From assembly GCA_951406725.2 (NCBI GenBank), contig OX597819.1:85932001-85996000 (forward strand): a stretch of DNA of 64,000 nt. Direction: 5' to 3'. Position numbers and translations under genes: made by a program. Source of the stretch: Octopus vulgaris (taxonomy: Eukaryota). Below are positions 8,298-59,485 of this stretch, piece after piece; within the stretch, counting starts at the first letter, position 1, and each line of letters starts with the position of its first letter. A model generated the notes under the pieces. It saw nothing but the letters and a program-made list of their open reading frames with translations. It did not search any database and had not been told where the DNA came from.

Positions 8298-9359
8298 ATG
8301 GAGGTTGTGACTTCAACATTAGAGTCCAGTTTTATTAAACATCTACCAAACAGCACTGATACTAACCATGAAGACTTTTATCATATGGCTCAATACATTA
8401 CTGGACTTATTGTTTACCCAATCACTTGCGTTTTCGGCATAACTGGCAATATACTTACATTGGTCGTTCTCTCTCACAAAGATTTAGCTACATCAACTAA
8501 TGTCTATCTCTCAGCACTTGCTGTTGGAGATCTGATAAAATTGATCAATGACACGTTGTATTTCATTGTTTTGCTCATTAAGACATGGAATCCCGATAAA
8601 GGTGATGAATCCCTTTCAAGACTTTATCCATACGCCCACTATTTATTTAATTTATCTCTCTGCATAACGGGATGGCTAACAGTATCGGTTGCATTTGAAC
8701 GTTATATTTCTATATGCCATCCAACAAGAGCCAAAGAGATGTGTACTGTTTTTAGAGCTCGCATTGTGAGCACATTTGTATTTATATTTATGATAATATT
8801 CTCACTTCCGTCAGCCCTTCGATATAAAACTGTTATACGGCTACGACCTAATACTAATGACTCATACCACGATGTGGAACTAACTGATTTGGGTCGAAAT
8901 GATGCTTTTATGACTCCTTATACATGGGTACAAAATTGCTTGAGAACGCTTTTACCTTTGCTTATATTAGTTTTCTTGAATGCTCGAATTGTCCACGAGT
9001 TAAGAAGATCACGTGTCCCAGGTAAGAAATTGTCCTCAAGAAACCGTATTACTTTAATGTTAATCGTTGTCGTGATAGTATTTATTATTTGCATTACTCC
9101 AGATGCTATCATGTCGACAGTATTTGGATTTGGCTATTACGATGAAACAAACTTAGTAAGAGGAATCAGAGAAATAACTGACACTCTATTGGCAATCAAC
9201 TCAGCATGTAATTTTGTACTCTACTGTACTATGAGCAAAGTATTTCGAGATACCTTCGTTAAAATGTTTTTAAGGGATTGTACTTGGTGTCCAATGTGGT
9301 GTTCGAATAAATGGAAACTAGAATCTCAAACAAATCAGATTAATAACACGGTAAAATGA
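8298..9359 (+). CDS. Class A (rhodopsin-like) GPCR, FMRFamide/peptide-receptor-like, single coding exon
   Basis: Intact 353-aa ORF with 7 hydrophobic segments and motifs GxxGN (TM1), STNVYLSALAVGD (TM2), AFERYISICHP (E/DRY, TM3), FIICITP (TM6) and NSACNFVLY (NFxxY variant of NPxxY, TM7). N-glycosylation sequon NST near the N-terminus. AATAAA downstream (~9429). Confidence 0.95.
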   Translation: MEVVTSTLESSFIKHLPNSTDTNHEDFYHMAQYITGLIVYPITCVFGITGNILTLVVLSHKDLATSTNVYLSALAVGDLIKLINDTLYFIVLLIKTWNPDKGDESLSRLYPYAHYLFNLSLCITGWLTVSVAFERYISICHPTRAKEMCTVFRARIVSTFVFIFMIIFSLPSALRYKTVIRLRPNTNDSYHDVELTDLGRNDAFMTPYTWVQNCLRTLLPLLILVFLNARIVHELRRSRVPGKKLSSRNRITLMLIVVVIVFIICITPDAIMSTVFGFGYYDETNLVRGIREITDTLLAINSACNFVLYCTMSKVFRDTFVKMFLRDCTWCPMWCSNKWKLESQTNQINNTVK

Positions 9360-10328: not shown

Positions 10329-10835
10329 ACAACAAACATTAAGGCAAGGCAAACAACTCGAGTCATATACATTATTATTATCGGAAAAAATTCAACGTCT
10401 TACAGCTGTTTCTGGGATATAACATAGTATGGAATATTCCGTCAACGGAGACGAATAGGGAAGATGAGAAGGTTATAGACAATGAAATGACAACATAGAG
10501 GACAAGAGTAAAGGAATAAGGAGATGAGAAAAAGAATAATGAGATAAAAAAAAGCAGCATAAAAGTTCATAGTTCAATTTCCCATGTTTTAGAAATAAGT
10601 GCATGATTCCTTATGCTCCGTTTTTGCTCTCTCTCCTCATCTCCATATTCCTTTACTCTTGTCCCCTATTTCGTCATTTCATTAATCTATACCCTTCTCT
10701 TTTTCGCTATTTGTGGCTGAAGACGGAGTATTCCAATCACTAGGATAAACCACAAACAGCTGTAAGATTTGAATTTTGTCTAATAAAAATAACGTATATG
10801 ACTTGAGATGTTTGCCTTGTCTTAAGGTTTGTTGT
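10329..10835. mobile_element. Diverged ~500-bp foldback element with hammerhead-like motifs in both arms
   Basis: Arms ~10329-10563 and ~10611-10835 are imperfect reverse complements. The minus strand of 10396-10453 reads cgtct-CCGTTGA-c-ggaatat...atatccc-a-GAAA-CAGCTG-TA-agacg. The right arm has ctgaaga...caaa-cagctg-ta. It abuts (TA)n at 10842. Confidence 0.75.
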
Positions 10836-17040: not shown

Positions 17041-17895
17041 AAAATATAACGTGCCTTGAATGGCACAACAATGCAGAGTGGACGATAATAACTTTTATAA
17101 TTAAATTATGCATAGTCTGATGTACTAATGATATTTCGGAATACAAAAATTCCTTCTTCAGATACCACTAGGAAATGATCGAGTCACTGCTATAATCGGT
17201 TTTCCAACGGTTACAGAATTTTTTTTTTCGGAAGCATCTCTTCAGGGGTATTTGGTACAAAGCCACAAGAATTTAAGTTTGAGGCGTTTCTTCTCTTGGT
17301 CAACGCAGTGGTGGTAGAATCGGTCAATAGCTGCAGTTGTTCTTCGTTATGTAGTTTCAGTGGTTGACGTGATGCTGGATATTATTTCTGAGAATTTGCG
17401 TATGTGCTCATGGAGCTGGTAGTGTAGATAGTGCATGATTTTTCTGATAACAAATATATGTATTTCAGTGATCGTCGAAGGGTAAGGCTGCGGAAGCACG
17501 TGGGTAGATGTATGTTCCTGATGGTGTCGGGAATTATGTTGTTTTTTTAGGTAGCGTTTAAGAAAGTTTGTTTGGTATCCGATTTTAGCACGTTTCTCTT
17601 ATAGCTTGATTAACTACCTAGCAGTTGCGAACTCGACCTACCCCAGGCATATACATAGGAGAGTACTGTAGTTCGTTTGAAGCATTGTGTATTATTCGTA
17701 AAATATAACGTGTCCTGAATGGCACAACCATTCAGAGTGGACTATTATAATTTAATTATTCATAGTCTGACTAAGGATAATTAAATTTAACAGTTATTAT
17801 ACTGCACTCTGCATTGTTGTGCCATTCAAGACACGTTATATTTTACAAACAATACACAACGCTTCAAGCGAACTACCATACTCTCCTATCCATAT
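17041..17895 (-). mobile_element. Penelope-like relic with direct and inverted terminal repeats and a hammerhead motif
   Basis: 17041-17120 is repeated at 17700-17770, and 17655-17745 is inverted at 17800-17890. The minus strand of 17122-17165 has CTGAAGA-a-GGAAT...ATTCC-GAAA. The internal minus-strand frame FLKR..NIIPDTIR...KKRLKLKFLWL resembles PLE N-terminal regions. Confidence 0.55.
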
Positions 17896-19345: not shown

Positions 19346-21309
19346 CATATATATGTACATACACACGTATACACATAAAAAATATATACAAACATAGATT
19401 CACGTAGAGGTATACATAGATATGCAGATTTAGACGTAAACATCTACAACCACACTATAACATACAAGTATATATATACCAGTATTAAAAAATAAACTTA
19501 ATTGTAAAATGGAATAACTAATAACATTTGCAAGTATTTACTGATGTAGATTTGTGGGGAGTAGGGGGAAATGGGAGTACATATACGTACGTATATAAGG
19601 TATACATATAAGTAGAAATGTATATGTATACTCAAATACAAATATATAGTTTTACAAAAAACTACATACAGAAGATGATGCATCTTACACATATCTATAT
19701 GAATGTGCATACAACACCCATATACACCTGCATATAGATATATGTATATATACACACAATGGGTGTATATACTCACATGTATGTATATACAGACGCATAT
19801 AGATATGTAAGCTCATAGACAGCAAACATACACGCATACGCATGTGTGCAAAAGTATAGAAGTAAATAAGAAAACAGACAGATATAAGTTCATTTATCCA
19901 AGCGTATGAGGAAAAAGTATAGAGAGACATAGTTTGCATAATAGCCCTATATATAGACGGTCCTTCAGTTATCATAAAGGAAAATTTAAAATATAGTATA
20001 TAAAGGGAATTTATGTTATGGTAACATAGTAAGATACGGTTCTATATTGGATAAGGGAGAATGTGTGATTTTAAAAAATATCAAATTAGGAAATAAGGAA
20101 GTAAATAGTTATTTTAGATTAATGAATAGGAATTTGGTCATGTGTTTACATAAAAAAAAAAAGATTTCACCCCTCGGTTTCCATTCATTCTTTTTATATT
20201 ATTGATTTCTTCTAGACATAGTCTGCAAATTTTATTGTCATTTCTGTAAGAAGTGGCCGAAAATAGAATTTTCCAGGAAACTGAGAAATTAATATTGTTT
20301 CCTTGAGGTGCCAATTTTTTTTAAAATTTTAGTCCGGTACGGTTCTCTTTTCTATGGTCCCTAAAGATGGATTCGTGGGTCGAAATGCGCGATTTAACCC
20401 AGTTTTGCGTGCAGCCTATATAAATCTCGATGAGTCCTGCGTGATAATTGTTGTCTGGTTCTTTTTATAATTTCTTTCTAATTTGCAAGCATTAGTAGGG
20501 CACGCAAAACCATATAATATCATTTCCAGGAGATGCCGACTCTGCTCAGGGGAATACCTACCTATTCTGTGGACCAATAAGAAGATCATGAATAGAAGTG
20601 GTGAATGTTGTGGGAATGAATTTGAATTACCGTTAACCTAATAAATAATCACAATTCACCTTAAGGTATGGATGAATTAAATTTAGCTATAACCTCTCCA
20701 TTCTTATAAACATCAAGCAGCTATTTAATGCGTTATGTGAACGTAGCGCGACAAACCACACGCGTGCTTATGCCTACATCTTTGTAGATGTTTGTATGAA
20801 TGATTATATCCAACGCGAGGACGTTTATGCATTCATATCTGTTAACGGTTGTATTTAATACTTTTTCGCTGTATTGCTTGTTCGTTTCTTTTTTGCATCT
20901 ATTATTTTTTATTATTGCTCTTCTATATAAATGGAGCTATATCCTTTAATTTGCTGCTTTTCTTTACACGAATTAAGAAGATATCTTACGGAACTGTTAT
21001 TTTAATGAGTTATGTCTATTTATCACACGAAAAGTCACAGCTGCACTGTCGAATGCTCCTGAACCAGTTGGTAAGCATCCCATCTGGGAGGGATCGATGC
21101 TAGGTGGGTTGAAAGAATTGCAGTGATTAATAAAAATTCTTGTTTCTCCCATCTTCCGTCTCTCTCATTAACCAAATACGCAACAAACACTGTGAAAGTG
21201 AACGTAGTCTACCTGCAAGCTACCAGGTATAGATCATATGATTTATTATCCCCCCTCTCTCTCTGTCAATATATGGATATATATATATATATATATATAT
21301 ATTGTTTTC

Positions 21310-21568
21310 AGAATGAGATAAAAAATATCCCGGAAACAGCTGTAAGACCTTCTATTTATAAATGTCCTAAAATCTTCACAGCCTTGGTTTTTTATCTCAT
21401 TCTGAATTTTTTTTTTATATATACATATGCTGATAAATGACCTACGTTGAACTCCTTATTCGCATAATCACCGAACCTGGAACTTAACTATGGTCTGTCC
21501 ATAGCACTTACTCAGTATTACCTGACACCTTAGGGTCTTATTGACACCATTACCTCTCATAACCTACC

Positions 21569-21570
<2 letters not shown>
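21310..21570. mobile_element. (TA)n-flanked element, rearranged relative of 32185-32500
   Basis: Shares attcgcataatcaccgaacctgg...ttattgacacc with 32410-32483. It carries the 3' half of the HHR motif (atatcccg-GAAA-CAGCTG-TA-agac) inside a short inverted repeat (cagaatgagataaaaaa / ttttttatctcattctg). Confidence 0.65.
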
Positions 21571-21648
<78 letters not shown>

Positions 21649-22805
21649 TATGTGTGTGTGTCTTGAAAGCACAATTATTATACCCACTTAGTTATACTGG
21701 TTAGTTTGTTCGAGTATACAAAAGTTTTAATCAGGGAAAAACTTTACTGTAGAAAATATTATAAAGGTAATTAGCTAAACTTGAGTTGCATTTGCACCTC
21801 ATATATGAAGGATATAACACATAAACTAGAGTAAAAGATTACAATTGCACATGAAGAAGCACTAACTCACCCTTTAGTCAATGTAACTCTAAGTATATAT
21901 ATAACAGAAAATTCATAAAAATTGTTGACAAATAATCCTAGATCTAGAAATAAAGTCATGGAGTTCCACAAGTGAGATATCTATAAGATAATGGTAGAGT
22001 AATGTTTGGAGTACTCTAGTGTTAATACATGAAGGAAAAAAATGAAGAATGCATTTCAAGTCAATGTAGATCTGTGTTGTGCTGATGGTTTTACTCAACT
22101 TTAATTGCAAATTTCCTAGAGGCTATCTCCGATATAATTGCAAATAGAAAGCCTAATGTAAACATATAAAACTGTCAGACTTCAGTCATCCACCTGTAAT
22201 TTTTTAGCAAGAGTCAGTAATTCATTAGCAAAACAGAAATCCCTAAAGTTATGACTTAGCTGGAAGCAGGTCCAAAGATGAAATGTTTAACATCCTCGAT
22301 TCTCAGTCCTCTATTGTTAAGACCAGACACTGTAAGGCTATTTGGTTCACACAACCATTTCCATCAAACCTTGTCAGAAGGTTTTCGATAAAATTTGCGA
22401 ATTAACTATTACAGCACAAAAAGTTAACACGCCCAAAATGGTGATACAGACATACATCAAACATGAAAGAAATACAAAAATATATCAACCATATGAACAA
22501 AGTCTCAGAATGCATCAGGCCAGCATCAATACACACCAGCTCAACCTATTAGGCAATACAGAAGTAATAACTTATATAAAGCAGAATATACGACAGAGAA
22601 GATTGATTAGACAACATTATTTCAACCATATGACACCTTCATACTTAGAGAGAAAAACAAATTAGAAAATTGCAGAGAAGTACTTGCATAGTGGATCTGG
22701 GATTGTGTGCTGGAGCGAAAACAATTGCAGCGTAGAAGGTGTTTATAAGCCATTTAAGAAACACACAAAAACTGTTAGATTCACTTCAACGTTTGAATTA
22801 AATTT

Positions 22806-22850
22806 GCCAAAATATTTTCGTCACTTTAAGACCGCGACCTGTTCACTGAC
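22806..22850 (-). ncRNA. Minimal type I hammerhead-like motif with G3-C8 core variant
   Basis: Minus strand reads gtca-GTGAACA-g-GTCGC-ggtcttaaa-GTGAC-GAAA-ATAT-TT-tggc. It lies between inverted repeats 22717-22746 and 22871-22900. Confidence 0.6.
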
Positions 22851-23181
22851 GAAATTCCGTGCTGCACGGAATAAATACCTTCCATGCTGCAATTGTTTTC
22901 AAATTAGAAAAGAATTTCAGGAAAATTATCGGAATAATTCTTATCAAGAAAAATTTCTTGAAAACACATGGGAGATTAATGAATATTAAAAATTTCAACT
23001 TAAATACGGCATGACGAAATTATCATCAGCAATACGAAATTATCACACAAACAAATATCATATATTCATGTTTTCAAAATGGCATCATTACAGCATGCAT
23101 GAAATTTTTGAAATGCATACCTTTATTTATATCTTATAGTTTTTTCATCATACCGGAATCACACAACATATCATTAATAAT

Positions 23182-23352
<171 letters not shown>

Positions 23353-24063
23353 CTTGTTGTCTCTTGAGGTCTCTGGGTGAGACTTGGAGCCAGCTTATGA
23401 AAATGTAAAGCAAAAGTCAAATAGAATGATAATAATAATACCGATAGGTAATGTTTATCTCCACTTAACATCAGTTGATACCATGACAAAGAGTGAAATA
23501 TTGGGTTTTGGTGCAAAATGTACTTCTGTTTAAATAGCTTACGGGGAGATAAATCCCTTCCATCTCGAACACCGAGACCACTAGTTCATGTGATCTCAAC
23601 CTTCCTTGGTCTCGTCAATGCCGGACGCTCAAACTCTGAGGACAGCGGCGACTAGCCTCTCCGCCAGCGATATATAGAAAACTGTGCCAATCTGAGAATT
23701 CTCTCATGGTGTCTACCACAGTATACTTCGTTCTAACAGAGCATCTAAGTTTTAGTGCATAAATGGGTAAATATGAGAAGGAGAAGAAGGAAGAAAGGTG
23801 AAGGTGAAGAGAGCGGGACGAAGCCTTCATTGTGGGAAGAAAACTTTCGTAACATATATTGAACGGTTGTTTTTATAAGTAAATGTCAATCCTATTGAAG
23901 GAGATATGAAGAATTTTAATGCGTTTTTATGTTTGACTCCTTGGATAAAGTTGATTACAAAATTGGAAATAACATGTCTTATCTTGTGATTAATTCCATA
24001 TACGAAAACAATGGGAGAGGCAATTGTTTGCATTTCGGGAATATAGGTATCTATACATTTATA

Positions 24064-24115
<52 letters not shown>

Positions 24116-24297
24116 TTAGGGAATAAATCCAAATTTACAGGGAAAAATCAGATTTAGGATTGAATCCAATTTTATAGTAAAATATTATATTATATTAAAT
24201 TAGAGACAAAACCACTATTATGCAAATCAAACAAAGAAAGACTTAAGCCAATACATAACATAATTTATATAAATTTAGAAATTTAACAATTATAAAT

Positions 24298-24358
24298 AAC
24301 CACTACGATCGTTTCATGTCTTATTTCAGCACATCTTTGAGACATTCTTCAGGTGGTT
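24298..24358 (-). ncRNA. Type I hammerhead ribozyme (left arm)
   Basis: Exact reverse complement of 24638-24698. Confidence 0.85.
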
Positions 24359-24637
24359 TCAAAACCTTCTTGGCGAGTTTTAAACTATGAACGGTTGATG
24401 CGCAAGTATGTGTCTCAATAAAACACCCCTCAAGCGTATGACTACCAGGCCAATTTGGAAAACAGAATTACTTAAAACATATCACAATTGGTATTTTCAA
24501 CGTTCTAACCAAATTCTATCAAGAAAAGAATTCCTTCAAAACATACGCGTTACAAAGAGAACAGAGAGATGGGCGACACACCGAACAAAGATAAAGCCAG
24601 GTAGTTCATAGTTTAAAACTCGCCAAGAAGGTTTTGA

Positions 24638-24698
24638 AACCACCTGAAGAATGTCTCAAAGATGTGCTGAAATAAGACATGAAACGATCGTAGTGGTT
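24638..24698 (+). ncRNA. Type I hammerhead ribozyme (right arm)
   Basis: aaccac-CTGAAGA-atgtct-(18-nt loop)-agacat-GAAA-CGATCG-TA-gtggtt: 6-bp stem I, intact core, 6-bp stem II, palindromic stem III and GUA cleavage triplet. Confidence 0.88.
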
Positions 24699-24852
24699 AT
24701 TTATAATTGTTAAATTTCTAAATTTATATAAATTATTTTATGTATTGGCTTAAGTCTTTCTTTGTTTGATTTGCATAATAGTGGTTTTGTCTCTAATTTA
24801 ATATTATATATATATATATACGCGGTGACATATGTATCTATATGCACTTATA

Positions 24853-24964
<112 letters not shown>

Positions 24965-25592
24965 TGTGTGAGCGTGTTTGAGGCTGAGAATGAGGGAGAG
25001 AGAGTGTATGTTTGTGTGTGTGCTTTTGTATGAGTAAACTTATATAAAATGATGCGGTAGATGAGCAAGTATGTGTCTCAATAAAACACCCCTCAAGCGT
25101 ATGACTACCAGGCCAATTTGGAAAACAGAATTACTTAGAACATATCACAATTGGTATTTTCAACGTTCTAACCAAATTCTATCAAGAAAAGAATTCCTTC
25201 AAAACATACGCGTTACAAAGAGAACAGAGAGATGTGCGACACACCGAACAAAGATAAAGCCAGGTAAGCTGTTGATGTGAATAAATTGATGAGAAAATCA
25301 AATCTATATAATTATTATTCAAACTTCAGGACAATTACAAAACAGCAACATCATGAGAACAAAAGGCATTTTCATATATATAATACACATACATACAAAC
25401 TCATAAATATATAAACATACATAAACACATATGTATCTCTCTCTCTCCATATATATATATATATACATATATATATGTATGTATATATGTATGTATGTAT
25501 GTGTGTATGTATCTATGTAATATGTATACATATGTATTTGTGAACGTATGCATACATGTGCATATAGATATATAATATATATATTTATATTA

Positions 25593-25647
<55 letters not shown>

Positions 25648-26004
25648 ATGATTTAGAACAAACAGTAAGCTGTCATTATAGTAATCAGAGTTTCGAATGT
25701 CGGAGCGAAGAGCTACGATACAATCTCGTCGTCTGCTATTAATGACAATAGATGCTATGAAAAACCGTTGAATAAAAGGGGAGTTATTCTAATAGGTAGA
25801 AAAAGAAAAAATGAAAAAAATACACGTAACAATATTCTCACAATATATAGACATAAAGCTCCTGCGTTCATAACGTCTACATACATACAGACTCTCGAAA
25901 CCTGTAGACGTACATGCACATATACACACACACATATATGAGCATGTACATACTCAAACATGCACACCTATCTACACACACATGTATATATATATATATA
26001 TATA

Positions 26005-26973
26005 TCTTTATATATATAAAACTGAGAATCTGTGTCTGTCTGTTTCCCTAAAACTTGAGAACTACACAACCAATTTCATTCAAATTTTACACATGCATTA
26101 CTTAGGGTCCGGGGAGTGTCATCGGCAAAAATAATTTTGAACTTTTTGCCTAGGGCGAGCCCACAGCAATATCATATCTTCTCCACTACGATTCCCTAAA
26201 ACTTGAGGACTACACAACCAATTCCATTCAAATTTTACACATGCCTTACTTAGGGTCCATGTAATTTCATGGGCAAAAAAAATGTTCAACTCCTTGCCTA
26301 GAGCGAGCCCATAGCAATATCATATCTTCTCCACTATTTCAGTATTACGTGTTAAAAGTGAAACAAAAACGTTTCTCTATTTTATGTCAGATACTTTCAC
26401 TTTAACAATAAAAATAAGTAATAATTAAAATCAAACTAAAGTATAATATAATCGTAACATAACAAAAGTAAAAATAGCAATTGGTATAAAATTGCATCAA
26501 TGACTTGAACTTGAATAAGTGGTTTCACATGAATGGGAATAAATTAAAAATAAAATTAGCGTGCAGATATGCAATAGTCCAGATTGATAATAAAAAATTA
26601 AATTAAAGAAAAGCCTATTGTCTATAAAGTATACAATGTAGAGAAAATAGAAGATTTGAACACCTGGAGGAAAGCACCTTCGAAATGTGTCTTGGTGCGA
26701 CTATGAAAGGTATGTAATCAGAGGCGGTAAGTTCGCCACAATAGAAGCAAGTTTCAAGTCAACGGAGCGTGCAAGGGAGTACTCGACTCGAACTTGCAAA
26801 GTGGAAATATTTTACATTTACCTTTATATCTGGGACGTAGGACATCCCGGAAAAGAATTTAAAATCCCCAAACCCAGAAGTAGAGGTAGGCTGGATTGTA
26901 GCCACACTTCTATACAAGAGGGAGGACAAGATACAATTGATCGAAATTACAAGAGACGGGCTAACAATTCTAG
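26005..26973 (+). mobile_element. Non-autonomous Helitron-like element
   Basis: Starts a|TCtttatatatataaaa and ends ...gacgggctaacaattCTAG|t (A|T target, 5'-TC and CTAG-3' ends). It has an internal ~147-bp tandem duplication (26045-26190 / 26192-26337). Confidence 0.6.
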
Positions 26974-27155
26974 TCTGTTATATATTTTGAGTATTGTTAT
27001 CACTAGCGATATCAAGATATAACTTTGTATTTTGTATTTTATGTGTAGATGTATATATATATAGTTGTACATGTAATATGTACACATATATATACACATA
27101 TATACATGCACTAGCACTATGACCCGGCAACGACGGGTCTTTAATGCTAGTATAT

Positions 27156-27190
<35 letters not shown>

Positions 27191-28819
27191 CAGTTGCGGC
27201 CAAAATGTTCAGAACGGCATTGTTTTCGTCAGAACAGTAGGTATAAGTTTTTATCAAAGTTGTTTTATATTCTATAATTTTCACAGACAATAAAGACAAT
27301 ATTAATTGTTATTATCTAAGATTTTCGTGTAATTTGAGAAGATAATACAAAAGTTATGGATGATTTAGTGATTTACTGCAAAACCCATGGCGGCCAAAAT
27401 GATCAGAACGGTTGAAAAAATAAAAAAATAATCAAAAATGACAGAGAATACTGGAATTATTTAATATTTAGTGTGAAGCCTTTTAGCTTCAATCACACTT
27501 TGACATCTTCAACTGTATGAGGAAATTAAATTTTCAATTTCTTGCTGGGTGATCTTATTCTATTCTTCCTGAAAGGCATTCCATATTTGCTCAGTTGTTT
27601 TAGGATTTCTGGCTTTCGAACGTTCTCTTAGAATATTCCACACATTTTAAATAGGATTGAGATCTGGGCTTTGAGCAGGCCAATCCATAACAATAACCTT
27701 TTCAGCCTTGAGGAAGTTCATGGCCACCTTAGCCTTGTGACATGGGGCATTGTCCTGCATAAATATGGGTGGTCACTTAGTTGAATTTCTTAGCACAGGC
27801 AAGACATGATTTTTTACAAGTTGTTTATAAACTCCTGCATTTAGCTTTCCACGTAATCGCACCAAAGGGCCCACACCATCTCCAGATATCATTCCCCAAA
27901 CCATGACACTTCCTCCACCGAATTTAACACTAGTCTTAAGGCATTTAGGCGGCAATTTTTCACCTCCTGTTTTACGAACGTACCTTTTCCTATCTGAGCC
28001 AAATAACATAAACTTAGATTCGTCACTGAAATGCACCGATTGCCATTTTTCTTGAGACCACAACACATGTTCGGTTGCAAAGGTAAGACGACACTTTTTA
28101 TTCTTGGAGCTGATCAGTGGCTTCACTGCAGGTGCTCTTGCTTGTAGGTCATGTTCAACTAAACGACGAGACACAGTTTTTCGAGATAAAGTTTTCTTCA
28201 GTACAATGCTCATTTCCCGAGAAACAGCAGCAGCAGTTTTAAATATGTCCTTTTTAACCAACTTTACCATAGCACGATCTTCTCTCTTGGTCGTTTTTCT
28301 TGGCCTACCTGTAGACTGTCTTGCTTCACACGAACCACAATCATCGTAGACCTTAAGAATACCGTGAACAACTCTTTTTGACTTGTTAATAATCTTTGCA
28401 ATAGACCCAATACTTAAATTATCCTTCTTTCGAAGCTTAATAATCTTTTGACGAATTGGTAACGGAGTAAGTGGCATTATATTAACAAAGTGCACTGCAG
28501 ATATTCTTACTAATGTTTAGTAAACGAACCGTCCCGTAAACAAATTCAAAACATTAGAGTTCGCCAGTTAAATATATTAAAACACGGAGTAAAAGCAACC
28601 GTTCTGATCATTTTTGCCGCCATGGGTTTTGCAGTAAATCACTAAATCATCCATAACTTTCGTATTATCCTCTCAAATTACACAAAACTCTGGGAAATTA
28701 GCAATTAATATCGTATTTATTGTCTGTGAAAATTATAGAATATATAACAACTTTGATAAAAACTTATACCTACTTATCTGACGAAAACAATGCTGTTCTG
28801 AATATTTTGGCCGCAACTG
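27191..28819 (-). mobile_element. Full-length Tc1 (DD34E) transposon with ~223-bp IR/DR-type TIRs and TA TSD
   Basis: TA|cagttgcggccaaaatgttcagaacgg at the left and its reverse complement ...ttttggccgcaactg|TA at the right. Inner direct repeats gcggccaaaatgatcagaacgg lie at ~27390-27413 and 28597-28620. Confidence 0.95.
27461..28477 (-). pseudogene. Tc1 transposase pseudogene
   Basis: GRPRKTT, FSDESKF and GGGSVMVWG are in the ORF. Reading through the stop at 27773 gives FMQDNAPCH...WPAQSPDLNPI*NVW...HTKY*, with four internal stops, one replacing the catalytic E (34 residues after the second D). Confidence 0.93.
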
Positions 28820-31344: not shown

Positions 31345-31408
<64 letters not shown>

Positions 31409-31689
31409 ATAAATATTAGGGAATAAATCCAAATTTACAGGGAAAAATCAGATTTAGGATTGAATCCAATTTTATAGTAAAATATAATATAATATTAATT
31501 AGAGACAAGACCACTATTATGCAAATCAAACAAAGAAAGACTTAATCCAATACATAAAAAATTTTATATAAATTAAATATAATTATATTTAATTTATATA
31601 AAATTATATATATATATATATATATATATGGTATGTATGCATGTATGTATGTGCGTAAATGTATGTGTAGATATGTGTCAATATTTGTG

Positions 31690-35120: not shown

Positions 35121-35812
35121 ATACAAATATTTTATGATTATAAACATAATTATAATTAGCGGGGTTCAGCGGATTGCTTCACCACATATCGAATTTAGAA
35201 ATAGGAGTTGAAAATTCCTTTTCTGCTACCGTAAGAATCTCCCAGTCAGTAATACACTCTTTTACGTATGCAAAGAGAAAAATAATGAATCAACACGACT
35301 CCGAGTAGCCACAGACGCGTTTCGAGATTAACGTATTTAATTTACTTCTCGTCATCAGTATAGCATTTCCATTATAAAATTTGAAAGTACTTGGGCTAAA
35401 TACAAACACGATCGAGCGACGTCATGCAAAAGATATCCAGCCAACACTTTCAAAATTTACACAGTGAATGTGAATACATATTTATCCCTTGTACCCACGT
35501 GTATGTTATGAGTTGTACCGCAAAAAACAAAAGTATTCGATCAGGGAGTAGATTATAATTTAAAATTAATAATAAAAGGGTAAAATTAATTAATTAATCA
35601 ATCAATTAACTAATAATTTTACCAAGTAGATCGGTATGTTAAAATAACCTTTATAGGTAAAATTATACAAATATTTTATAATTAGAAACATAATTATAAT
35701 TAGGGGTCAGCTAATTGCTTCACCACATACCAAATTTAGAAATAGGAGTTAAAATTTCCTTTTCTACTGCCGTAAGAATCTCTCAGACAGTAACGCACTC
35801 TCTTACGTAGGC
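35121..35812 (-). mobile_element. Retrozyme-like element, 1.3 units of a 544-bp monomer with a hammerhead
   Basis: 35121-35272 is repeated at 35665-35812 (period 544). It is flanked by (TA)n and shares motifs (gggtaaaattaattaatt, accaagt, ttagaaatag) with the 545-bp array unit. Confidence 0.8.
35308..35364 (-). ncRNA. Type I hammerhead ribozyme
   Basis: Minus strand reads gctata-CTGATGA-c-GAGA...TCTC-GAAA-CGCG-TC-tgtggc (6-bp stem I with G-U pairs, GUC triplet). Confidence 0.8.
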
Positions 35813-35813
35813 A

Positions 35814-43533: not shown

Positions 43534-46500
43534 TACATTATATAAAAGGGCTTAGTAAAATAAATTACTTTGCCGCATACTGAACTCATTAGAAATAGCA
43601 GCTAAAAAACTTTTTTAAAGCTATTTCTAATACTTAAAGAAAATCTCTCTCATATATAGTGTTTGCTTAAGTTTGGGGGTAAGGACATTAAAAAATCAAA
43701 TGCTAAGGTTATTTGAGAACGTACGTTTCAAGATTAGTCAAAACAACACTTCTATCATCAGCTCAGAAACTCCTTGGTTTGGATTTGGAAACACTGAAAG
43801 TAAGAACATACCCTTTCGAAGATCCGCTCGTAACTAACAGTGCCAACAAACCCAAATAAGCAAGCGAAGAATTTCTGTTCTCCCCTTTCCACCAGCGTGG
43901 GTTAAAATCATCAAACGCTATGCTTATTTCGGTAAAATCCGAAGCATTAATTAGAGGGAGATTAATTATAATTTCAACAATTGAGGGTAAAATTAATTAA
44001 TTATTAATCAATTTCACCAAGTGTTCAGTATGCAAAGGGACCATTTAAGGCGAATTCAAATTATTACATTATATAAAAGGGCTTAGTAAAATAAATTACT
44101 TTGCCGCATACTGAACTCATTAGAAATAGCAGCTAAAAAACTTTTTTAAAGCTATTTCTAATACTTAAAGAAAATCTCTCATATATAGTGTTTGCTTAAT
44201 TCAACTCACAAAAGTTTGGGGGTAAGGACATTAAAAAATCAAATGCTAAGGTTATTTGAGAACGTACGTTTCAAGATTAGTCAAAACAACACTTCTATCA
44301 TCAGCTCAGAAACTCCTTTCTTTAAGTATTAGAAATAGCTTTAAAAAAGTTTTTTAGCTGCTATTTCTAATTAATCTCCCTCTAATTAATGCTTCGGATT
44401 TTACCGAAATAAGCATAGCGTTTGATGATTTTAACCCACGCTGGTGGAAAGGGGAGAACAGAAATTCTTCGCTTGCTTATTTGGGTTTGTTGGCACTGTT
44501 AGTTACGAGCGGATCTTCGAAAGGGTATGTTCTTACTTTCAGTGTTTCCAAATCCAAACCAAGGAGTTTCTGAGCTGATGATAGAAGTGTTGTTTTGACT
44601 AATCTTGAAACGTACGTTCTCAAATAACCTTAGCATTTGATTTTTTAATGTCCTTACCCCCAAACTTTTGTGAGTTGAATTAAGCAAACACTATATATGA
44701 GAGAGATTTTCTTTAAGTATTAGAAATAGCTTTAAAAAAGTTTTTTAGCTGCTATTTCTAATGAGTTCAGTATGCGGCAAAGTAATTTATTTTACTAAGC
44801 CCTTTTATATAATGTAATAATTTGAATTCGCCTTAAATGGTCCCTTTGCATACTGAACACTTGGTGAAATTGATTAATAATTAATTAATTTTACCCTCAA
44901 TTGTTGAAATTATAATTAATCTCCCTCTAATTAATGCTTCGGATTTTACCGAAATAAGCATAGCGTTTGATGATTTTAACCCACGCTGGTGGAAAGGGGA
45001 GAACAGAAATTCTTCGCTTGCTTATTTGGGTTTGTTGGCACTGTTAGTTACGAGCGGATCTTCGAAAGGGTATGTTCTTACTTTCAGTGTTTCCAAATCC
45101 AAACCAAGGAGTTTCTGAGCTGATGATAGAAGTGTTGTTTTGACTAATCTTGAAACGTACGTTCTCAAATAACCTTAGCATTTGATTTTTTAATGTCCTT
45201 ACCCCCAAACTTTTGTGAGTTGAATTAAGCAAACACTATATATGAGAGAGATTTTCTTTAAGTATTAGAAATAGCTTTAAAAAGTTTTTTAGCTGCTATT
45301 TCTAATGAGTTCAGTATGCGGCAAAGTAATTTATTTTACTAAGCCCTTTTATATAATGTAATAATTTGAATTCGCCTTAAATGGTCCCTTTGCATACTGA
45401 ACACTTGGTGAAATTGATTAATAATTAATTAATTTTACCCTCAATTGTTGAAATTATAATTAATCTCCCTCTAATTAATGCTTCGGATTTTACCGAAATA
45501 AGCATAGCGTTTGATGATTTTAACCCACGCTGGTGGAAAGGGGAGAACAGAAATTCTTCGCTTGCTTATTTGGGTTTGTTGGCACTGTTAGTTACGAGCG
45601 GATCTTCGAAAGGGTATGTTCTTACTTTCAGTGTTTCCAAATCCAAACCAAGGAGTTTCTGAGCTGATGATAGAAGTGTTGTTTTGACTAATCTTGAAAC
45701 GTACGTTCTCAAATAACCTTAGCATTTGATTTTTTAATGTCCTTACCCCCAAACTTTTGTGAGTTGAATTAAGCAAACACTATATATGAGAGAGATTTTC
45801 TTTAAGTATTAGAAATAGCTTTAAAAAAGTTTTTTAGCTGCTATTTCTAATGAGTTCAGTATGCGGCAAAGTAATTTATTTTACTAAGCCCTTTTATATA
45901 ATGTAATAATTTGAATTCGCCTTAAATGGTCCCTTTGCATACTGAACACTTGGTGAAATTGATTAATAATTAATTAATTTTACCCTCAATTGTTGAAATT
46001 ATAATTAATCTCCCTCTAATTAATGCTTCGGATTTTACCGAAATAAGCATAGCGTTTGATGATTTTAACCCACGCTGGTGGAAAGGGGAGAACAGAAATT
46101 CTTCGCTTGCTTATTTGGGTTTGTTGGCACTGTTAGTTACGAGCGGATCTTCGAAAGGGTATGTTCTTACTTTCAGTGTTTCCAAATCCAAACCAAGGAG
46201 TTTCTGAGCTGATGATAGAAGTGTTGTTTTGACTAATCTTGAAACGTACGTTCTCAAATAACCTTAGCATTTGATTTTTTAATGTCCTTACCCCCAAACT
46301 TTTGTGAGTTGAATTAAGCAAACACTATATATGAGAGAGATTTTCTTTAAGTATTAGAAATAGCTTTAAAAAAGTTTTTTAGCTGCTATTTCTAATGAGT
46401 TCAGTATGCGGCAAAGTAATTTATTTTACTAAGCCCTTTTATATAATGTAATAATTTGAATTCGCCTTAAATGGTCCCTTTGCATACTGAACACTTGGTG

Positions 46501-47093
46501 AAATTGATTAATAATTAATTAATTTTACCCTCAATTGTTGAAATTATAATTAATCTCCCTCTAATTAATGCTTCGGATTTTACCGAAATAAGCATAGCGT
46601 TTGATGATTTTAACCCACGCTGGTGGAAAGGGGAGAACAGAAATTCTTCGCTTGCTTATTTGGGTTTGTTGGCACTGTTAGTTACGAGCGGATCTTCGAA
46701 AGGGTATGTTCTTACTTTCAGTGTTTCCAAATCCAAACCAAGGAGTTTCTGAGCTGATGATAGAAGTGTTGTTTTGACTAATCTTGAAACGTACGTTCTC
46801 AAATAACCTTAGCATTTGATTTTTTAATGTCCTTACCCCCAAACTTTTGTGAGTTGAATTAAGCAAACACTATATATGAGAGAGATTTTCTTTAAGTATT
46901 AGAAATAGCTTTAAAAAAGTTTTTTAGCTGCTATTTCTAATGAGTTCAGTATGCGGCAAAGTAATTTATTTTACTAAGCCCTTTTATATAATGTAATAAT
47001 TTGAATTCGCCTTAAATGGTCCCTTTGCATACTGAACACTTGGTGAAATTGATTAATAATTAATTAATTTTACCCTCAATTGTTGAAATTATA
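43534..47093. repeat. Array of 545-bp hammerhead-containing monomers: ~1.4 inverted copies then 5 tandem copies, inserted in (TA)n
   Basis: Plus-strand units start at ~44372, 44917, 45461, 46006 and 46551 and are almost identical. 43534-44316 is the same sequence in the opposite orientation. Confidence 0.97.
44571..44622 (+). ncRNA. Type I hammerhead motif of the 545-bp monomer (also + 45116-45167, 45660-45711, 46205-46256, 46750-46801; - 43714-43765, 44257-44308)
   Basis: tgag-CTGATGA-tagaag...aatctt-GAAA-CGTACG-TT-ctca: 4-bp stem I, intact core, short/weak stem II, palindromic stem III and GUU triplet. Confidence 0.75.
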
Positions 47094-49395: not shown

Positions 49396-49816
49396 CTTAC
49401 TTATAAATGTATGCGTGGCGGTCGATCATATAATAGTATAAATAATATATGTATATTTGCATATATACACACATATATGTACATTCCTACATATATATGT
49501 ATATATACATGCATATATGGGTACATGACGTCAAACACACACACACACACGTCCATTTCATATAGACGTACATAAACTTTTACTTTCTTTCTCTGTTCTT
49601 TTCGCTTTGTCTTCTTTCAATTTCTGCTCTCTTGAAATACATTTTTACATAATGAGCGTGAGAAACACAGAAAAGACGTAATCTCTCCAGAAACAAGTAT
49701 AAAGCAAGAAGGATTGTAGAAAACCGAAGGCAAGTGTCTGAAGAGAGATGAGATTTCTCAAGATCAGCAAATTCATGTTGCAGCACTTAATGCTGGATCA
49801 TTAAATCAATGTTTTA

Positions 49817-50634
49817 ATGATTAGACAGAGGTCCAGTAGTATAGCTCTCAGAAACACACTACGCACAAATTTATTCTTCACAACTCCTGAAGTTGTTTTC
49901 AGATATGATCCATCCCGTTCATATAAAAATGATAACTCTGTCCAAATTGGTGTGCTAAACACAAATTGTCGTTTATGTAGAGCTTTAAAATTTTCAAATG
50001 AACCAGACGGTAAGTGCTGCTCAGGTGGCAAGGCAACATTGCCAGCACTACCAGCTCCTTCTCAACCTCTTATGAATCTTCTAGAAGGCACTTCCATCAA
50101 GTCAAAAGATTTCCTTAACAATTTCAGACAATACAACTCTGCACTTCAAATGACAGCGTTTGGAGCATCTAAGAAGATTGATAAACATGAATTTACGCCG
50201 ACGTCAGAGTTCAAGAGCAAGTCTATCACCTCATTGGTTCTCTGTTACTCGCAAATGAACAACCACAGTTCCTCCAAACTTAGTTTATGAGTGATGTAGG
50301 ACAATAAACCCGACGGAAGTGCCAAAATTCCAGATGATGAGTCGCGTTACACACAGTGCCAACTGCTGCAAAGGAAAGTATATCCACTGACTGATTTTCG
50401 GTGCCTTCAAAAATCATATAAACCCCACATCCAATTTTCCATGACTGGTTAGGGCCTGAAATGCTTCAAACGGACGCATAGCATGTTGCTTAGTCAAAGC
50501 AGCCCATCATTTACTCCACAAATGTTTTGCTGTCAATGCTGCACTTCCCATATCACCTGTTTCAACATAACTGTAAAACATTATATACAGACTATGCCAT
50601 TTTAATCTCGAGCAATGCCGGGTATCTCTGCTAG
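49817..50634 (+). mobile_element. Helitron relic (RepHel N-terminal fragment plus 3' end), copy 1
   Basis: CRLCRALKF..E...CCSGGK.LP...SKDFLNNFRQYNSALQMTAFGA, then a frameshifted RVQEQVYHLIGSL. The 3' end is ctcgagcaatgccggg...tgCTAG|t. Confidence 0.85.
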
Positions 50635-50716
50635 TATATATACATATAAATACGTATGTAAGTATGCATATATATATGTATATATATATATATATATATA
50701 TAAATACGTATGTAAG

Positions 50717-50816
<100 letters not shown>

Positions 50817-50858
50817 AATATGTATACATATTTATATATTTATATATACATATGTATA

Positions 50859-50896
<38 letters not shown>

Positions 50897-50919
50897 CATG
50901 TGAATATCTATGCCTATGT

Positions 50920-50962
<43 letters not shown>

Positions 50963-51513
50963 TAGATAAAACATATATGTATATATGTTTGTGTGTGTGC
51001 GTGTTTGTGAATGTGTTCGTGTGTGTGCGTGCGTGCGTGTGTATTGTATTTATGATGGATAGAATTAGATGAGTCTCGATGACAGGTTTATGTTATTTGT
51101 CGACAAGAATCTCACAAATTATATCTTTTAACGAGATAATGATTTTTCGATTTTGATGACCTGATTGAATTTAAATAGTATGGTTGTTTGATCACTCTAC
51201 TTCTTACCCGTTGTAGCCACACCTAATTTTCCTATATATTCGTGCATTAAGATTGTATAACCTAGTGCTGCAACTGATGTTTAAGTTGTTCAGGTCGCTG
51301 GATGATACCTCACTTTTTTGATATTTTATCTGTTTAAAATTTTGCCTGATGATGATGAATTCTAGGTTATGACGTAATCCTTTCTGCTAGCTTTAGAAAA
51401 AATTCTACTAAAACAGCTATCACAAATTTAAAACACAAGCTGTGTTTATATTTTTATAGGACCAACCATGGAGTTGGATCCATGGTTTAAATTCGAGGTG
51501 GTAATTAAATATC

Positions 51514-51922
51514 ATGGGCGCAGGAATGGCTGTGTGGTAAGTAGCTTGCTAACCAACCACATGGTTCCGGGTTCAGTCCCACTGCGTGGCATCTTGGGCA
51601 AGTGTCTTCTGCTATAGCCCCGGGCCGACCAATGCCTTGTGAGTGGATTTGGTAGACGGAAACTGAAAGAAGCCTGTCGTATATATGTATATGTATGTAT
51701 GTGTGTTTGTGTGTCTGTGTTTGTCCCCCTAGCATTGCTTGACAACCGATGCTGGTGTGTTTCTGTCCCCGTCACTTAGCGGTTCGGCAAAAGAGACCGA
51801 TAGAATAAGTACTGGGCTTACAAAGAATAAGTCCCGGGGTCGATTCGCTCGACTAAAGGCGGTGCTCCAGCATGGCCGCAGTCAAATGACTGAAACAAGT
51901 AAAAGAGAAAGAGAGTAAAGAG
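51514..51922 (+). mobile_element. Full-length tRNA-derived SINE
   Basis: A box tggctgtgtgg, B box gggttcagtccc, CORE-like atcttgggcaagtgtctt and an (aagag) tail. The empty site taattaaatatctagag is seen in the duplicate at ~53931; tatc is duplicated at the insertion. Confidence 0.9.
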
Positions 51923-52217
51923 TATCTAGAGTACCTTACCTACACTTGATCTTCTCAATATAGTTTACCCCTCTGTGAGATCTATTTTCTCGTACCTAGC
52001 CATTCCTTGCGTTTAATGTGTTGATGTACATATGTTCTTATGAATCCATATAACTATACGATATATATATATATATGCGATTCTTTTATTGTTTTATTTC
52101 GTTCAGTCATTTGACTGCAGCCATGAACCGCCTTGAATTTTTTGTCGAATGGATCGACCTCACTTAATTATTTTGTGAGCCTGACCCTTAATGCTGGATC
52201 ATTAAATCAATGTTTTA

Positions 52218-53029
52218 ATGATTAGACAGAGGTCCAGTAGTATAGCTCTCAGAAACACACTACGCACAAATTTATTCTTCACAACTCCTGAAGTTGTTTT
52301 CAGATATGATCCATCCCATTCTTATAAAAATGATAACTCTGCCCAAATTGGTGTGCTAAACACAAATTGTCGTTTATGTAGAGCTTTAAAATTTTCAAAT
52401 GAACCAGACGGTAAGTAATGCTCAGGCGGCAAGGCAACATTGCCAGCACTACCAGCTCCTTCTCAACCTCTTATGAATCTTCTAGAAGGCACTTCCATCA
52501 AGTCAAAAGATTTCCTTAACAATTTCAGACAATACAACTCTGCACTTCAAATGACAGCGTTTGGAGCATCTAAGAAAATTGATAACCATGAATTTACGCC
52601 GACGTCAGAGTTCAAGAGCAAGTCTATCACCTCATTGGTTCCCTGTTACTCGCAAATGAACAACCACAGTTCCTCCAAACTTAGTTTATGAGTGATGTAG
52701 GACAATAAACCCGACGGAAGTGCCAAAATTCCAGATGATGAGTCGCGTTACACACAGTGCCAACTGCTGCAAAGGAAAGTATATCCACTGACTGATTTTC
52801 GGTGCCTTCAAAAATCATATAAACCCCACATCCAATTTTCCATGACTGGTTAGGGCCTGAAATGCTTCAAACGGACGCATAGCATGTTGCTTAGTCGAAG
52901 CAGCCCATCATTTACTCCACAAATGTTTTGCTATCAATGCTGCACTTTCCCATATCACTTGTTTCAACATAACTGTAATACATTATATACAGACTATGCC
53001 ATTTTAATCTCGAGCGGGTATCTCTGCTA

Positions 53030-53030
<1 letters not shown>
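52218..53030 (+). mobile_element. Helitron relic, copy 2
   Basis: Duplicate of 49817-50634 with an extra stop (TGC>TAA) and a deletion in the terminal hairpin. Confidence 0.85.
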
Positions 53031-53068
<38 letters not shown>

Positions 53069-53114
53069 CGTATGTAAGTATGTATATATATATATATATA
53101 AATACGTATGTAAG

Positions 53115-53150
<36 letters not shown>

Positions 53151-53269
53151 CGTATGTAAGTATGTATATATATATATATATATATAAATATATATATACA
53201 TATACATATATATATATATATATACATATGTATGTAAATATGTATACATATTTATATATTTATATATAC

Positions 53270-53312
<43 letters not shown>

Positions 53313-53342
53313 TGGCATGTGAATATCTATGCCTATGTGTAC

Positions 53343-53387
<45 letters not shown>

Positions 53388-54184
53388 TAGATAAAACATA
53401 TATGTATATATGTTTGTGTGTGTGCGTGTTTGTGAATGTGTTCGTGTGTGTGCGTGCGTGCGTGTGTATTGTATTTATGATGGATAGAATTAGATGAGTC
53501 TCGATGACAGGTTTATGTTATTTGTCGACAAGAATCTCACAAATTATATCTTTTAACGAGATAATGATTTTTCGATTTTGATGACCTGATTGAATTTAAA
53601 TAGTACGGTTGTTTGATCACTCTACTTCTTACTTACCCGTTGTAGCCACACCTAATTTTCCTATATATTCGTGCATTAAGATTGTATAACCTAATGCTGC
53701 AACTGATGTTTAAGTTGTTCAGGTCGCTGGATGATACCTCATTTTTTTGATATTTTATCTGTTTAAAATTTTGCCTGATGATGATGAATTCTAGGTTATG
53801 ACGTAATCCTTTCTGCTAGCTTTAGAAAAAATTCTACTAAAACAGCTATCACAAATTTAAAACACCAGCTGTGTTTATATTTTTATAGGACCAACCATGG
53901 AGTTGGATCCATGGTTTAAATTCGAGGTGGTAATTAAATATCTAGAGTACCTTACCTACACTTGATCTTCTCAATATAGTTTACCCCTCTGTGAGATCTA
54001 TTTTCTCGTACCTAGCCATTCCTTGCGTTTAATGTGTTGATGTACATATGTTCTTATGAATCCATATAACTATACGATATATATATATATATATATAATA
54101 TTTGTAAACAGGCTTTGTAAGTTACGGAGAGGAAGCTACTATGGAAACTCAGTAAAATAATAACTGTATAATATTATATATTAC

Positions 54185-54400
54185 CCGATTTGAAGCGACA
54201 ATTTTTAAATTCAGAAGAATAACCGAAAAATGATGAGCTAAGCCTTGCCAGAATCGAACCCACAAATCAACGTTATCGTGGTTCCTTGTGCATCCGATTC
54301 AAAGGAGCCTTGTTAGCGTTGATTTGTGGTTTTGATTCTGGGTAGGGTTAGCTCATCAAATTTTGGTCAATTGTAATTAAAGATTGTCACTTCAAATCGG
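54185..54400. repeat. Diverged ~215-bp foldback between (TA)n tracts
   Basis: ccgatttgaagcgacaat...tgatgagctaa...ccacaaatcaacg pairs with cgttgatttgtgg...ttagctcatca...attgtcacttcaaatcgg. Confidence 0.8.
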
Positions 54401-54424
54401 AAAACATTTATTGTTATGGTATAT

Positions 54425-57500: not shown

Positions 57501-58012
57501 CGAATTGAAGGCATGGCTGCTCTTGATTATTGGGACCGCCTTAAAGCCTTGAAACTCTACTCTCTCCAGCGTCGCCGTGAGCGGTACATCATTTGCATGA
57601 TGTGGAGAATATACCGCCAACTTTGCCCAAACGACCTGAACATTAGCTTCAAGGTTCATCCAAGTCTGGGACCACGGGCCATACGTCCCCTACCCAATCC
57701 AAGATCACGGCATATATGTACACTGCAACATAATTTCTTTTCTTCAACAGGCCCTGCTCTATTTAACATTGTCCCGAAAGAGATCAAAGAGGAAAAGGAT
57801 CCCATCAACTTTAAACGGAGTCTGGATAGATTGCTTCAAGGAATACCAGATAAGCCACCCATAATTGGATACAATTCACTCAACCAAAGCTCACTACTTG
57901 AATGGACCATAAACAAAACTTGACTCAAACAGGATTTAGATAATCCTATCTGGTGGTGCTATTAAGTTAGACATGGCCTGGACCAATCTTTGGTCGAAAC
58001 ATATCTAAGTTT
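54535..58012 (+). mobile_element. Near-full-length CR1-type LINE (APE + RT), pseudogenised
   Basis: ORF1 tail ([10 protein letters not shown]); APE motifs LLNVRG, LAETHL, GLYRPP, VMGDF, LDLILTN and SDH; RT motifs PISLTSHIIKVFE, YLDFSKAFD, SGVPQGTVLGP and FADD; C-terminal LYSLQRRRERY. Several frameshifts and stops. (TA)n at both ends. Confidence 0.93.
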
Positions 58013-58833: not shown

Positions 58834-59485
58834 TATATAAAACAATGATTTGAAACATACGTATTAAATGCTTTCAAAATATGATTATTTGGTTTGATTT
58901 CATTTATATTATGTGTATGTATGTGAATGTGTGTGTGTTTGTGTGTGTTTGTGCATGTGTGTGCATGCATGTGATGTTGTGTACGTGCATCTATGTGTTT
59001 GTAAAATTATATATCTTTAGGTATAGGCACCAATTTATATCTAAATATCTGCATGCATAAATTTCCATCTTTTCTATTTCGCTTTCTATCTCCGTTTCTG
59101 CTAAATATTCTTTTATACGTCTGTTTCCAAATTCTGCCGCTGTTCACAGTTGCAAGTGATATACATTATATATTCTTTATGTTTGATATCTTACAATCTA
59201 AATTACAGTATTGACGAAATGCACATATTCATAATTTAAACATCCTCTAAACACTTAGAACGCAATTCTGAATTCAAGCTAAGTTGTTAATTTATCTTAG
59301 CTAAACATTTTGCATTTAATCAGTTCTCACCGTAAAATAAATATGACAAAATCTAAATTTAAACATCCTGTTTACATATTGCATTGTATACTGACTTTAT
59401 TTCTAACTCGTGCTACTTTTAACGCTATCATTAAATTTCATATGCTCTCTATTATCTCCAGTCACTTACATTACTAACTTGCGAC

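Follow-up and report, generated by a model that had tools for sequence, protein, structure and literature searches.

Work on several animal retroelements forms the background here, and the papers are cited for parts of their content. The metazoan Penelope motifs treated in PMC4209133 include dual hammerheads on opposite strands, 100–700 bp apart; in Schistosoma the single motif showed no cleavage, and dimers showed weak cleavage. Part of PMC3846280 describes inverted pLTRs, one of which may bear a tail, and the capture of host DNA between pLTRs. In the relevant portion of PMC8557442, an inverted 5' copy, a one-sided tail and a preference for TA microsatellites have been reported. A Poseidon protein has been shown to cut AT-rich DNA on both strands and to extend both; two RT start sites define the tail, and hammerhead cleavage is dispensable for insertion in vitro (PMC11167929, in part). 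For L1, templated jumps onto genomic DNA have been reported to supply filler (PMC11702581, in part), and tandem non-LTR retrozymes have been described in sections of PMC7229834 and bioRxiv 10.64898/2026.07.22.740005. Inverted Penelope copies give rise to siRNAs in Drosophila (PMC3681739, in part). Octopus vulgaris carries 30 recently active Penelope families according to a section of PMC13282606. The octopus also has exceptional dsRNA potential, with unusually many near-perfect dsRNA loci and hyper-editing; the source of the dsRNA substrates is explained in that part of the paper for the frog and not for the octopus (PMC5625713). A literature search by title and start of abstract returned no report of an octopus hammerhead; subscription papers, Repbase/Dfam and the supplement of PMC13282606 may hold the family.

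The locus described here lies in a stretch of 64,000 nucleotides of O. vulgaris DNA that was analysed as a whole (the window), and all coordinates are positions in it. Two head-to-head copies of a high-copy non-coding octopus repeat enclose 211 nt of nearby low-copy DNA. The features are as follows.

24067–24111, no strand: TA tract, left target flank
24112–24185, minus strand: 74-nt tail, a 3' extension found only on the left copy; very high-copy
24186–24392, minus strand: left arm; 24186 is a recurrent short 3' end of the repeat family, and 24259 carries a private C
24298–24358, minus strand: type I hammerhead motif, dimer type, in the left arm
24393–24603, plus strand: spacer, low-copy DNA duplicated from 25056–25266 in the donor
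24604–24810, plus strand: right arm
24638–24698, plus strand: type I hammerhead motif in the right arm; predicted cleavage after 24692
24805–24820, no strand: TA tract, right target flank
25055–25266, plus strand: presumed spacer donor within its own flanks; a contig of sequencing run X8 carries the donor-type letters

Near-perfect inverted arms of about 200 bp had been claimed in the original prediction, and they were borne out. The arms (24186–24392 and 24604–24810) measure 207 nt each, are separated by 211 nt and differ at two positions, 24191 at the edge and 24259 inside; the core pair 24192–24392 / 24604–24804 is 99.5% identical. Both arms begin at the same repeat nucleotide, and the right arm stops at the short 3' end. 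Two features were absent from that prediction. The left copy reaches 24112, 74 nt past the inverted repeat, which is the same end point as that of the copy at 31412–31574. In addition, the spacer is a direct copy (98% identity) of 25055–25266, a donor 663 nt downstream, from which it differs at four positions (24396, 24401, 24475 and 24572); exact homology with the donor flanks amounts to 1 nt at the left junction and 0 nt at the right. That two of the four differences fall in the first 10 nt (P ~0.013) suggested an extension of the left arm 10 nt into the spacer, but this idea is not supported, no other contig covering 24401. Because the insertion sits in a TA tract, a target-site duplication cannot be read there, and no empty allele was seen. 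Loosely duplicated segments of 33–35 nt (24034–24066 and 24821–24855), each directly before a TA tract flanking the foldback, are perhaps an older duplication.

Public sequencing runs were used to compare copy number and junctions. Four of the 24 runs listed (X1, X2, X4 and X8) were compared with 24112–24603, at the level of contigs only; two of the resulting tables are listed for 24 of 216 and for 32 of 6716 rows. The spacer (24401–24570) showed flat depth from one contig per run, at the low values of 71.7, 5.8, 56.8 and 8.0 in the four runs, and in the first three depth stayed low to 24603. Summed depth over the hammerhead was ~150–1100 times that of the spacer in X1, X2 and X4 and 2–5 times in X8; over the tail it was ~3,000–140,000 times, and at the tail peak ~24,000–140,000 times in X1, X2 and X4, summed contig depth being a contrast and not a copy number. 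Depth in the arm declines toward the 5' end of the repeat, as expected for a 5'-truncated retroelement. The depth contrast identifies the arm as a dispersed, 3'-biased repeat and the spacer as local low-copy DNA. Loose ends at 24186 followed by TA letters occurred in 21, 22, 18 and 4 contigs of the four runs. A 36+4-nt tail repeat (24147 back to 24112) was present in copies of X1 and X2, and X2 also has a variant in which 24391 adjoins a piece of tail in inverted orientation.

A contig spanning 24363–24603 with the left junction was found in X1, X2 and X4, which represent three studies and three organism labels, and was absent among the pieces listed for X8; the left-junction contigs hold 30 letters on the arm side, the bridging rule being 31 letters. 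The left junction in three studies indicates that the insertion is shared and not private, so that an empty site may not exist. In X1 and X4 this contig stops at precisely 24603, a point at which a branch is expected from the window. In X1, which is possibly the sample behind the window itself, it is 1.57 times as deep as the contig that departs at 24574, and two spacer copies predict 1.52. The right junction appeared in no joint listed across the four runs, and we only infer it. The X2 contig extends 195 nt past 24603, which equals the distance from the donor end to the next microsatellite, and the extension fits the downstream flank of the donor rather than a second arm; the cause is either graph collapse at a depth of 5.8 or an allele that lacks the right arm. 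The left junction of X4 carries donor-type letters at 24475 and 24572. Graph collapse would explain the missing right junction, the X2 extension and the X4 letters alike, and one-arm alleles are also possible. The X8 spacer contig has four other letters and continues past 24392, consistent with the donor copy.

The original prediction had also placed a hammerhead in each arm with its parts named, and a motif search of both arms confirmed this. The 61-nt motif at 24638–24698 on the plus strand has an identical copy at 24358–24298 on the minus strand. It consists of a stem I of 6 bp, CUGAAGA, a stem II of 6 bp with an 18-nt loop, GAAA and the triplet GUA; stem III has 2 bp, is palindromic and closes a palindromic loop, as in the dimer type. 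The features of type I are present, namely the core CUGANGA, GAAA and UH around three helices that are open at stem I. A descriptor requiring stem I of at least 6 bp and stem II of at least 4 bp matched three sites in the 64-kb window, and raising the minimum for stem II to 6 bp left two; neither version matched anything in 100 dinucleotide shuffles. The pair 10.1–11.1, which closes stem II, is A-U and not the conserved G-C, and the motif is without the extra nucleotide after position 9 that typifies Penelope hammerheads; no common variant at either place occurred among the rows listed for the family contigs. No hammerhead was matched by Rfam in the whole window at the gathering score or in 24100–24900 at E<=10. 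Matches to Rfam microRNAs were rejected, as they fall on the TA tract below the gathering scores. An exact search of metagenome contigs with a 22-nt piece of the motif gave 0 matches. Stem II begins with an ATG (24651), from which only 20 codons are open.

Folding predictions bear on the activity of the motif. For the monomer, the predicted energy of the catalytic fold is -6.8 kcal/mol, the MFE being -10.9, and in the catalytic register probabilities of 0.05 for stem II and 0.003 for stem III are predicted. The catalytic arrangement of the dimer is predicted at -28.4 kcal/mol, with a dimer MFE of -28.8 and -21.8 for two monomers; the dimer thus lies 6.6 kcal/mol below two monomers, yet its stem II probability is only 0.3. 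For the palindromic helix III, intermolecular pairs are predicted with probabilities of 0.92–1.0, against 0.003 in the monomer. The ribozyme is therefore predicted to be poorly active alone and to cleave only as a dimer, and a motif that proved inactive in isolation would be no argument against the hammerhead reading. Among the rows listed for family contigs, all three substitutions inside the motif fall in loop II (P ~0.03), and a 7-nt deletion among the listed variants leaves five of the six stem II pairs. The confinement of changes to loop II is weak evidence that the hammerhead fold may be maintained across the repeat family. Two qualities that had been attributed to the motif proved overstated. 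"Textbook" does not suit a hammerhead with a 2-bp palindromic stem III, A-U at 10.1–11.1 and no Rfam match, and "cleanest in the window" does not agree with a stem II probability that is far below the 0.75–0.87 predicted for the hammerhead at 35364–35308.

A transcript of either strand had been expected to sequester its hammerhead in a long duplex, and the folding energies argue for this. The full foldback hairpin is predicted at about -355 to -367 kcal/mol, with one perfect stretch of 133 bp and another of 67 bp, and the probability of ribozyme stem I in the finished hairpin is predicted at ~1e-66. In read-through from either strand, the antisense arm would be made first, and the emerging ribozyme would pair with it into a duplex of ~200 bp; by the time the motif emerges, the 34 nt preceding it are predicted to be in pairs. 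Because there is one sense motif per transcript, no cis dimer can form. According to these models, the catalytic fold would be absent and the ribozyme shut off in the foldback. On editing, the contigs are neutral: none of the 24 runs is listed as RNA, A>G rows in X8, a run only guessed to be RNA, recur in DNA-type runs, and no T>C was found among the rows listed, with contigs dropping rare variants.

The preferred reading, given a probability of about 0.7, is a single insertion event in which a Penelope-like RT/GIY-YIG enzyme moved a pLTR-type RNA in trans, the ribozyme of this RNA depending on dimerisation. A Penelope-type origin as such is held with considerable confidence. The earlier claim that the inverted arrangement is of the Penelope type gains support from the one-sided tail, the TA-tract target and the 3'-biased high-copy repeat. 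Twin priming plus templated filler is adopted tentatively as the route, at slightly less than even odds. By this route, the endonuclease would cut both strands of the TA tract, and each 3' end would prime reverse transcription, one at the long start (24112) and the other at the equivalent of the short start (24186). Opposed copies would result, with a tail on one side only, and both cDNAs would halt at the same 5' point. One end would then copy 211 nt lying 235 nt beyond the cut and join the other with 0–1 nt of exact homology. No RT or GIY-YIG domain was found in six frames of 20001–27500 (0 Pfam families), and one frame of the arm gave no candidate among longer proteins, which is weak evidence. 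The foldback is not an autonomous element; it behaves like a pLTR insertion of the Penelope type and is at most a putative member of a named PLE family. One protein candidate was rejected. The spacer was considered as the end of a GIY-YIG ORF on account of two frames suggestive by eye, with nothing above cut-off in Pfam and a spacer that is low-copy; the one phmmer match of the plus frame, through spacer and arm, proved an artefact of summed mucin repeats. The foldback is most probably an insertion without function.

Several other explanations have to be weighed against a single twin-primed insertion. The same Penelope-type element could have formed its inverted arm by self-priming (fold-back) of one cDNA or of an antisense template. 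This would explain at once why both arms share a start nucleotide, palindromic junctions do occur elsewhere in the window (a perfect 46 nt at 31560–31605; 1754–2072, without a spacer), and such a model has been published for rotifer Penelope (PMC3846280, in part). However, neither junction of the foldback shows a palindrome or complementarity, 211 nt of neighbouring DNA intervene, and a second variant, in X2, joins at 24391, so that this point recurs independently; self-priming is considered somewhat unlikely. In addition, the long and short ends and the locally templated filler favour two-ended priming over it. Two independent insertions, or one insertion plus an inverted or tandem duplication through template switching during DNA repair, are distinctly unlikely. 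The arms differ at one inner site in ~200, most of the family contigs compared are less than 99% alike, and a common start base would be unexpected for independent insertions. The abundance of the repeat family speaks for such a two-step origin, as do the X2 contig, which with its left arm, spacer and 195 nt of apparently low-copy DNA could be a one-arm allele, the donor-type letters of X4, which could belong to a real one-arm allele, and the flank segment of 33–35 nt before the TA tract, which is also loosely duplicated.

An assembly artefact, through a chimeric read or the false duplication of two haplotypes, draws on the right junction that was not seen directly in contigs, on TA tracts that are hard to assemble and on evidence drawn from contigs. 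It is very unlikely, given flanks that are not mirrored, asymmetric arms, a left junction recovered in three studies, X1 and X4 contigs that end exactly at 24603 and the X1 depth ratio that fits two spacer copies. Long inverted ends and a TA context would also suit a MITE or foldback DNA transposon with terminal inverted repeats of 200 nt; already contradicted by the low-copy interior, and further by the 3' depth gradient in the arms, the 74-nt asymmetry of the ends and the presence of a hammerhead, this reading is scarcely credible. Co-option of the hairpin as a regulatory RNA, either as a source of siRNA or as an antisense-gated ribozyme switch, would find a basis in the predicted perfect duplexes of 133 and 67 bp, in the siRNAs of inverted Penelope in Drosophila (PMC3681739, in part) and in the near-perfect dsRNA loci of the octopus (PMC5625713, in part). 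It is highly improbable: no evidence of selection on the foldback copy was found, the high identity of the arms is explained by age, and similar structures occur four times in 64 kb.

The insertion had been called young, a description that holds only loosely. The arms, with one inner difference, give 0.7 My (0.02–3.9), and the spacer gives 1.4 My (0.2–5.0) on two differences or 2.6 My (0.7–6.7) on four, all with wide intervals. Gene conversion would make an arm-based age too low. The clock was JC 0.09 = 25 My, as quoted in part of PMC13282606.

The window contains three further inverted insertions that lie between TA tracts and have one side longer than the other, and the inverted arms of all four insertions add up to 2348 nt, or 3.7% of the window. 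The palindrome at 1753–2113 is near-perfect (320 nt, 98%), is flanked by a TA tract on either side and extends 40 nt further at its right end alone; no convincing hammerhead emerged when this segment was scanned for a relaxed core. A tail-only copy of the foldback repeat family at 31406–31604, also between TA tracts, ends in the perfect 46-nt palindrome (31560–31605). Units of 545 nt with a type I hammerhead occupy 43536–47089: two minus-strand motifs come first, then a fragment of 55 nt and five tandem motifs on the plus strand; this array lies in TA tracts, has a one-sided extension of 96 nt and is retrozyme-like. A 544-nt unit at 35131–35813, in ~1.25 copies, shares 31 nt with the 545-nt array, and the hammerhead at 35364–35308 on the minus strand has the extra nucleotide and a G10.1-C11.1 pair.

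The window also holds features of other kinds. Inverted repeats of 224 nt (92%) at 27191–28819 surround an ORF of 247 aa (27773–28516, minus strand), which by eye we take to be a Tc1-type transposase. A single-ORF 7TM receptor lies at 8298–9359 (ORF 8298–9356); its 90% cluster has five proteins, three of which, from Octopus sinensis, O. bimaculoides and O. vulgaris, are named FMRFamide receptor(-like). Older palindromes, 73–81% self-complementary, were found at 10329–10835, 17649–17895 and 54168–54417. Broken ORFs at 55116–57923 and 59435–60794 are by eye remnants of LINE endonuclease and reverse transcriptase, and direct duplications of ~98% identity within 49786–54063 measure 849 nt (49786–50633 / 52187–53029) and 475 nt (51043–51513 / 53468–53942).

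The foldback is of little importance as a single locus, since opposed hammerheads in inverted repeats of the Penelope type have already been described. It is of use as a clean fossil for the question of how Penelope-like elements make head-to-head repeats. If foldbacks are as dense genome-wide as in the window, they would be a candidate source of octopus hyper-editing substrates. A wider generalisation, which we regard as unlikely, would be that Penelope enzymes routinely prime both cut strands and add local filler, and that the resulting foldbacks are the main source of the exceptionally abundant near-perfect dsRNA and hyper-editing of the octopus, each inverted insertion switching off its own dimer-dependent ribozyme and feeding silencing of the family.

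Among the described systems, the locus resembles the inverted pLTRs of EN+ Penelope-like elements (PLEs; Penelope/Poseidon, Neptune) in its head-to-head repeats of ~200 nt with a hammerhead in the repeat, and also in the extension of one end, the AT/TA-microsatellite target and the host DNA between the repeats (PMC3846280 and PMC8557442, in part). Unlike those elements, it has no ORF at the foldback, its tail is 74 nt against 30–40 nt in the published parts cited, and what was captured between the inverted heads is a copy of local DNA 663 nt distant. With the Cercyon-type PLEs of Schistosoma mansoni (PMC4209133, in part) it shares type I motifs on opposite strands, here 280 nt apart, a stem II of more than 4 bp, a palindromic helix III and a dimer-type architecture; the octopus motif differs in its A10.1-U11.1 pair where those have G-C, in lacking the extra nucleotide that follows A9, and in the sizes of stem I (6 bp) and loop II (18 nt). 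Animal non-LTR retrozymes (parts of PMC7229834; bioRxiv 10.64898/2026.07.22.740005) are likewise non-coding, carry a type I hammerhead, measure a few hundred nt and are probably PLE-derived. The foldback is inverted, however, and not head-to-tail as in retrozymes, and no joint closing the unit on itself (24392 back to 24112) was found among the joints listed for the four runs. As in Poseidon PAc of Anolis in vitro (PMC11167929, in part), stem II of the octopus repeat begins with an ATG, the repeat has two 3' ends beyond the hammerhead and the target is AT-rich; the octopus ATG opens only 20 codons, and from it to the two ends there are 159 and 233 nt, compared with 111–118 nt to the preferred PAc start. 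The opposed cDNAs proposed here, from both ends of a break and with genomic filler, are also found in the twin priming and templated insertions of L1 (PMC11702581, in part), in which the two pieces are non-overlapping and carry poly(A), whereas in the octopus both arms copy the same sequence.
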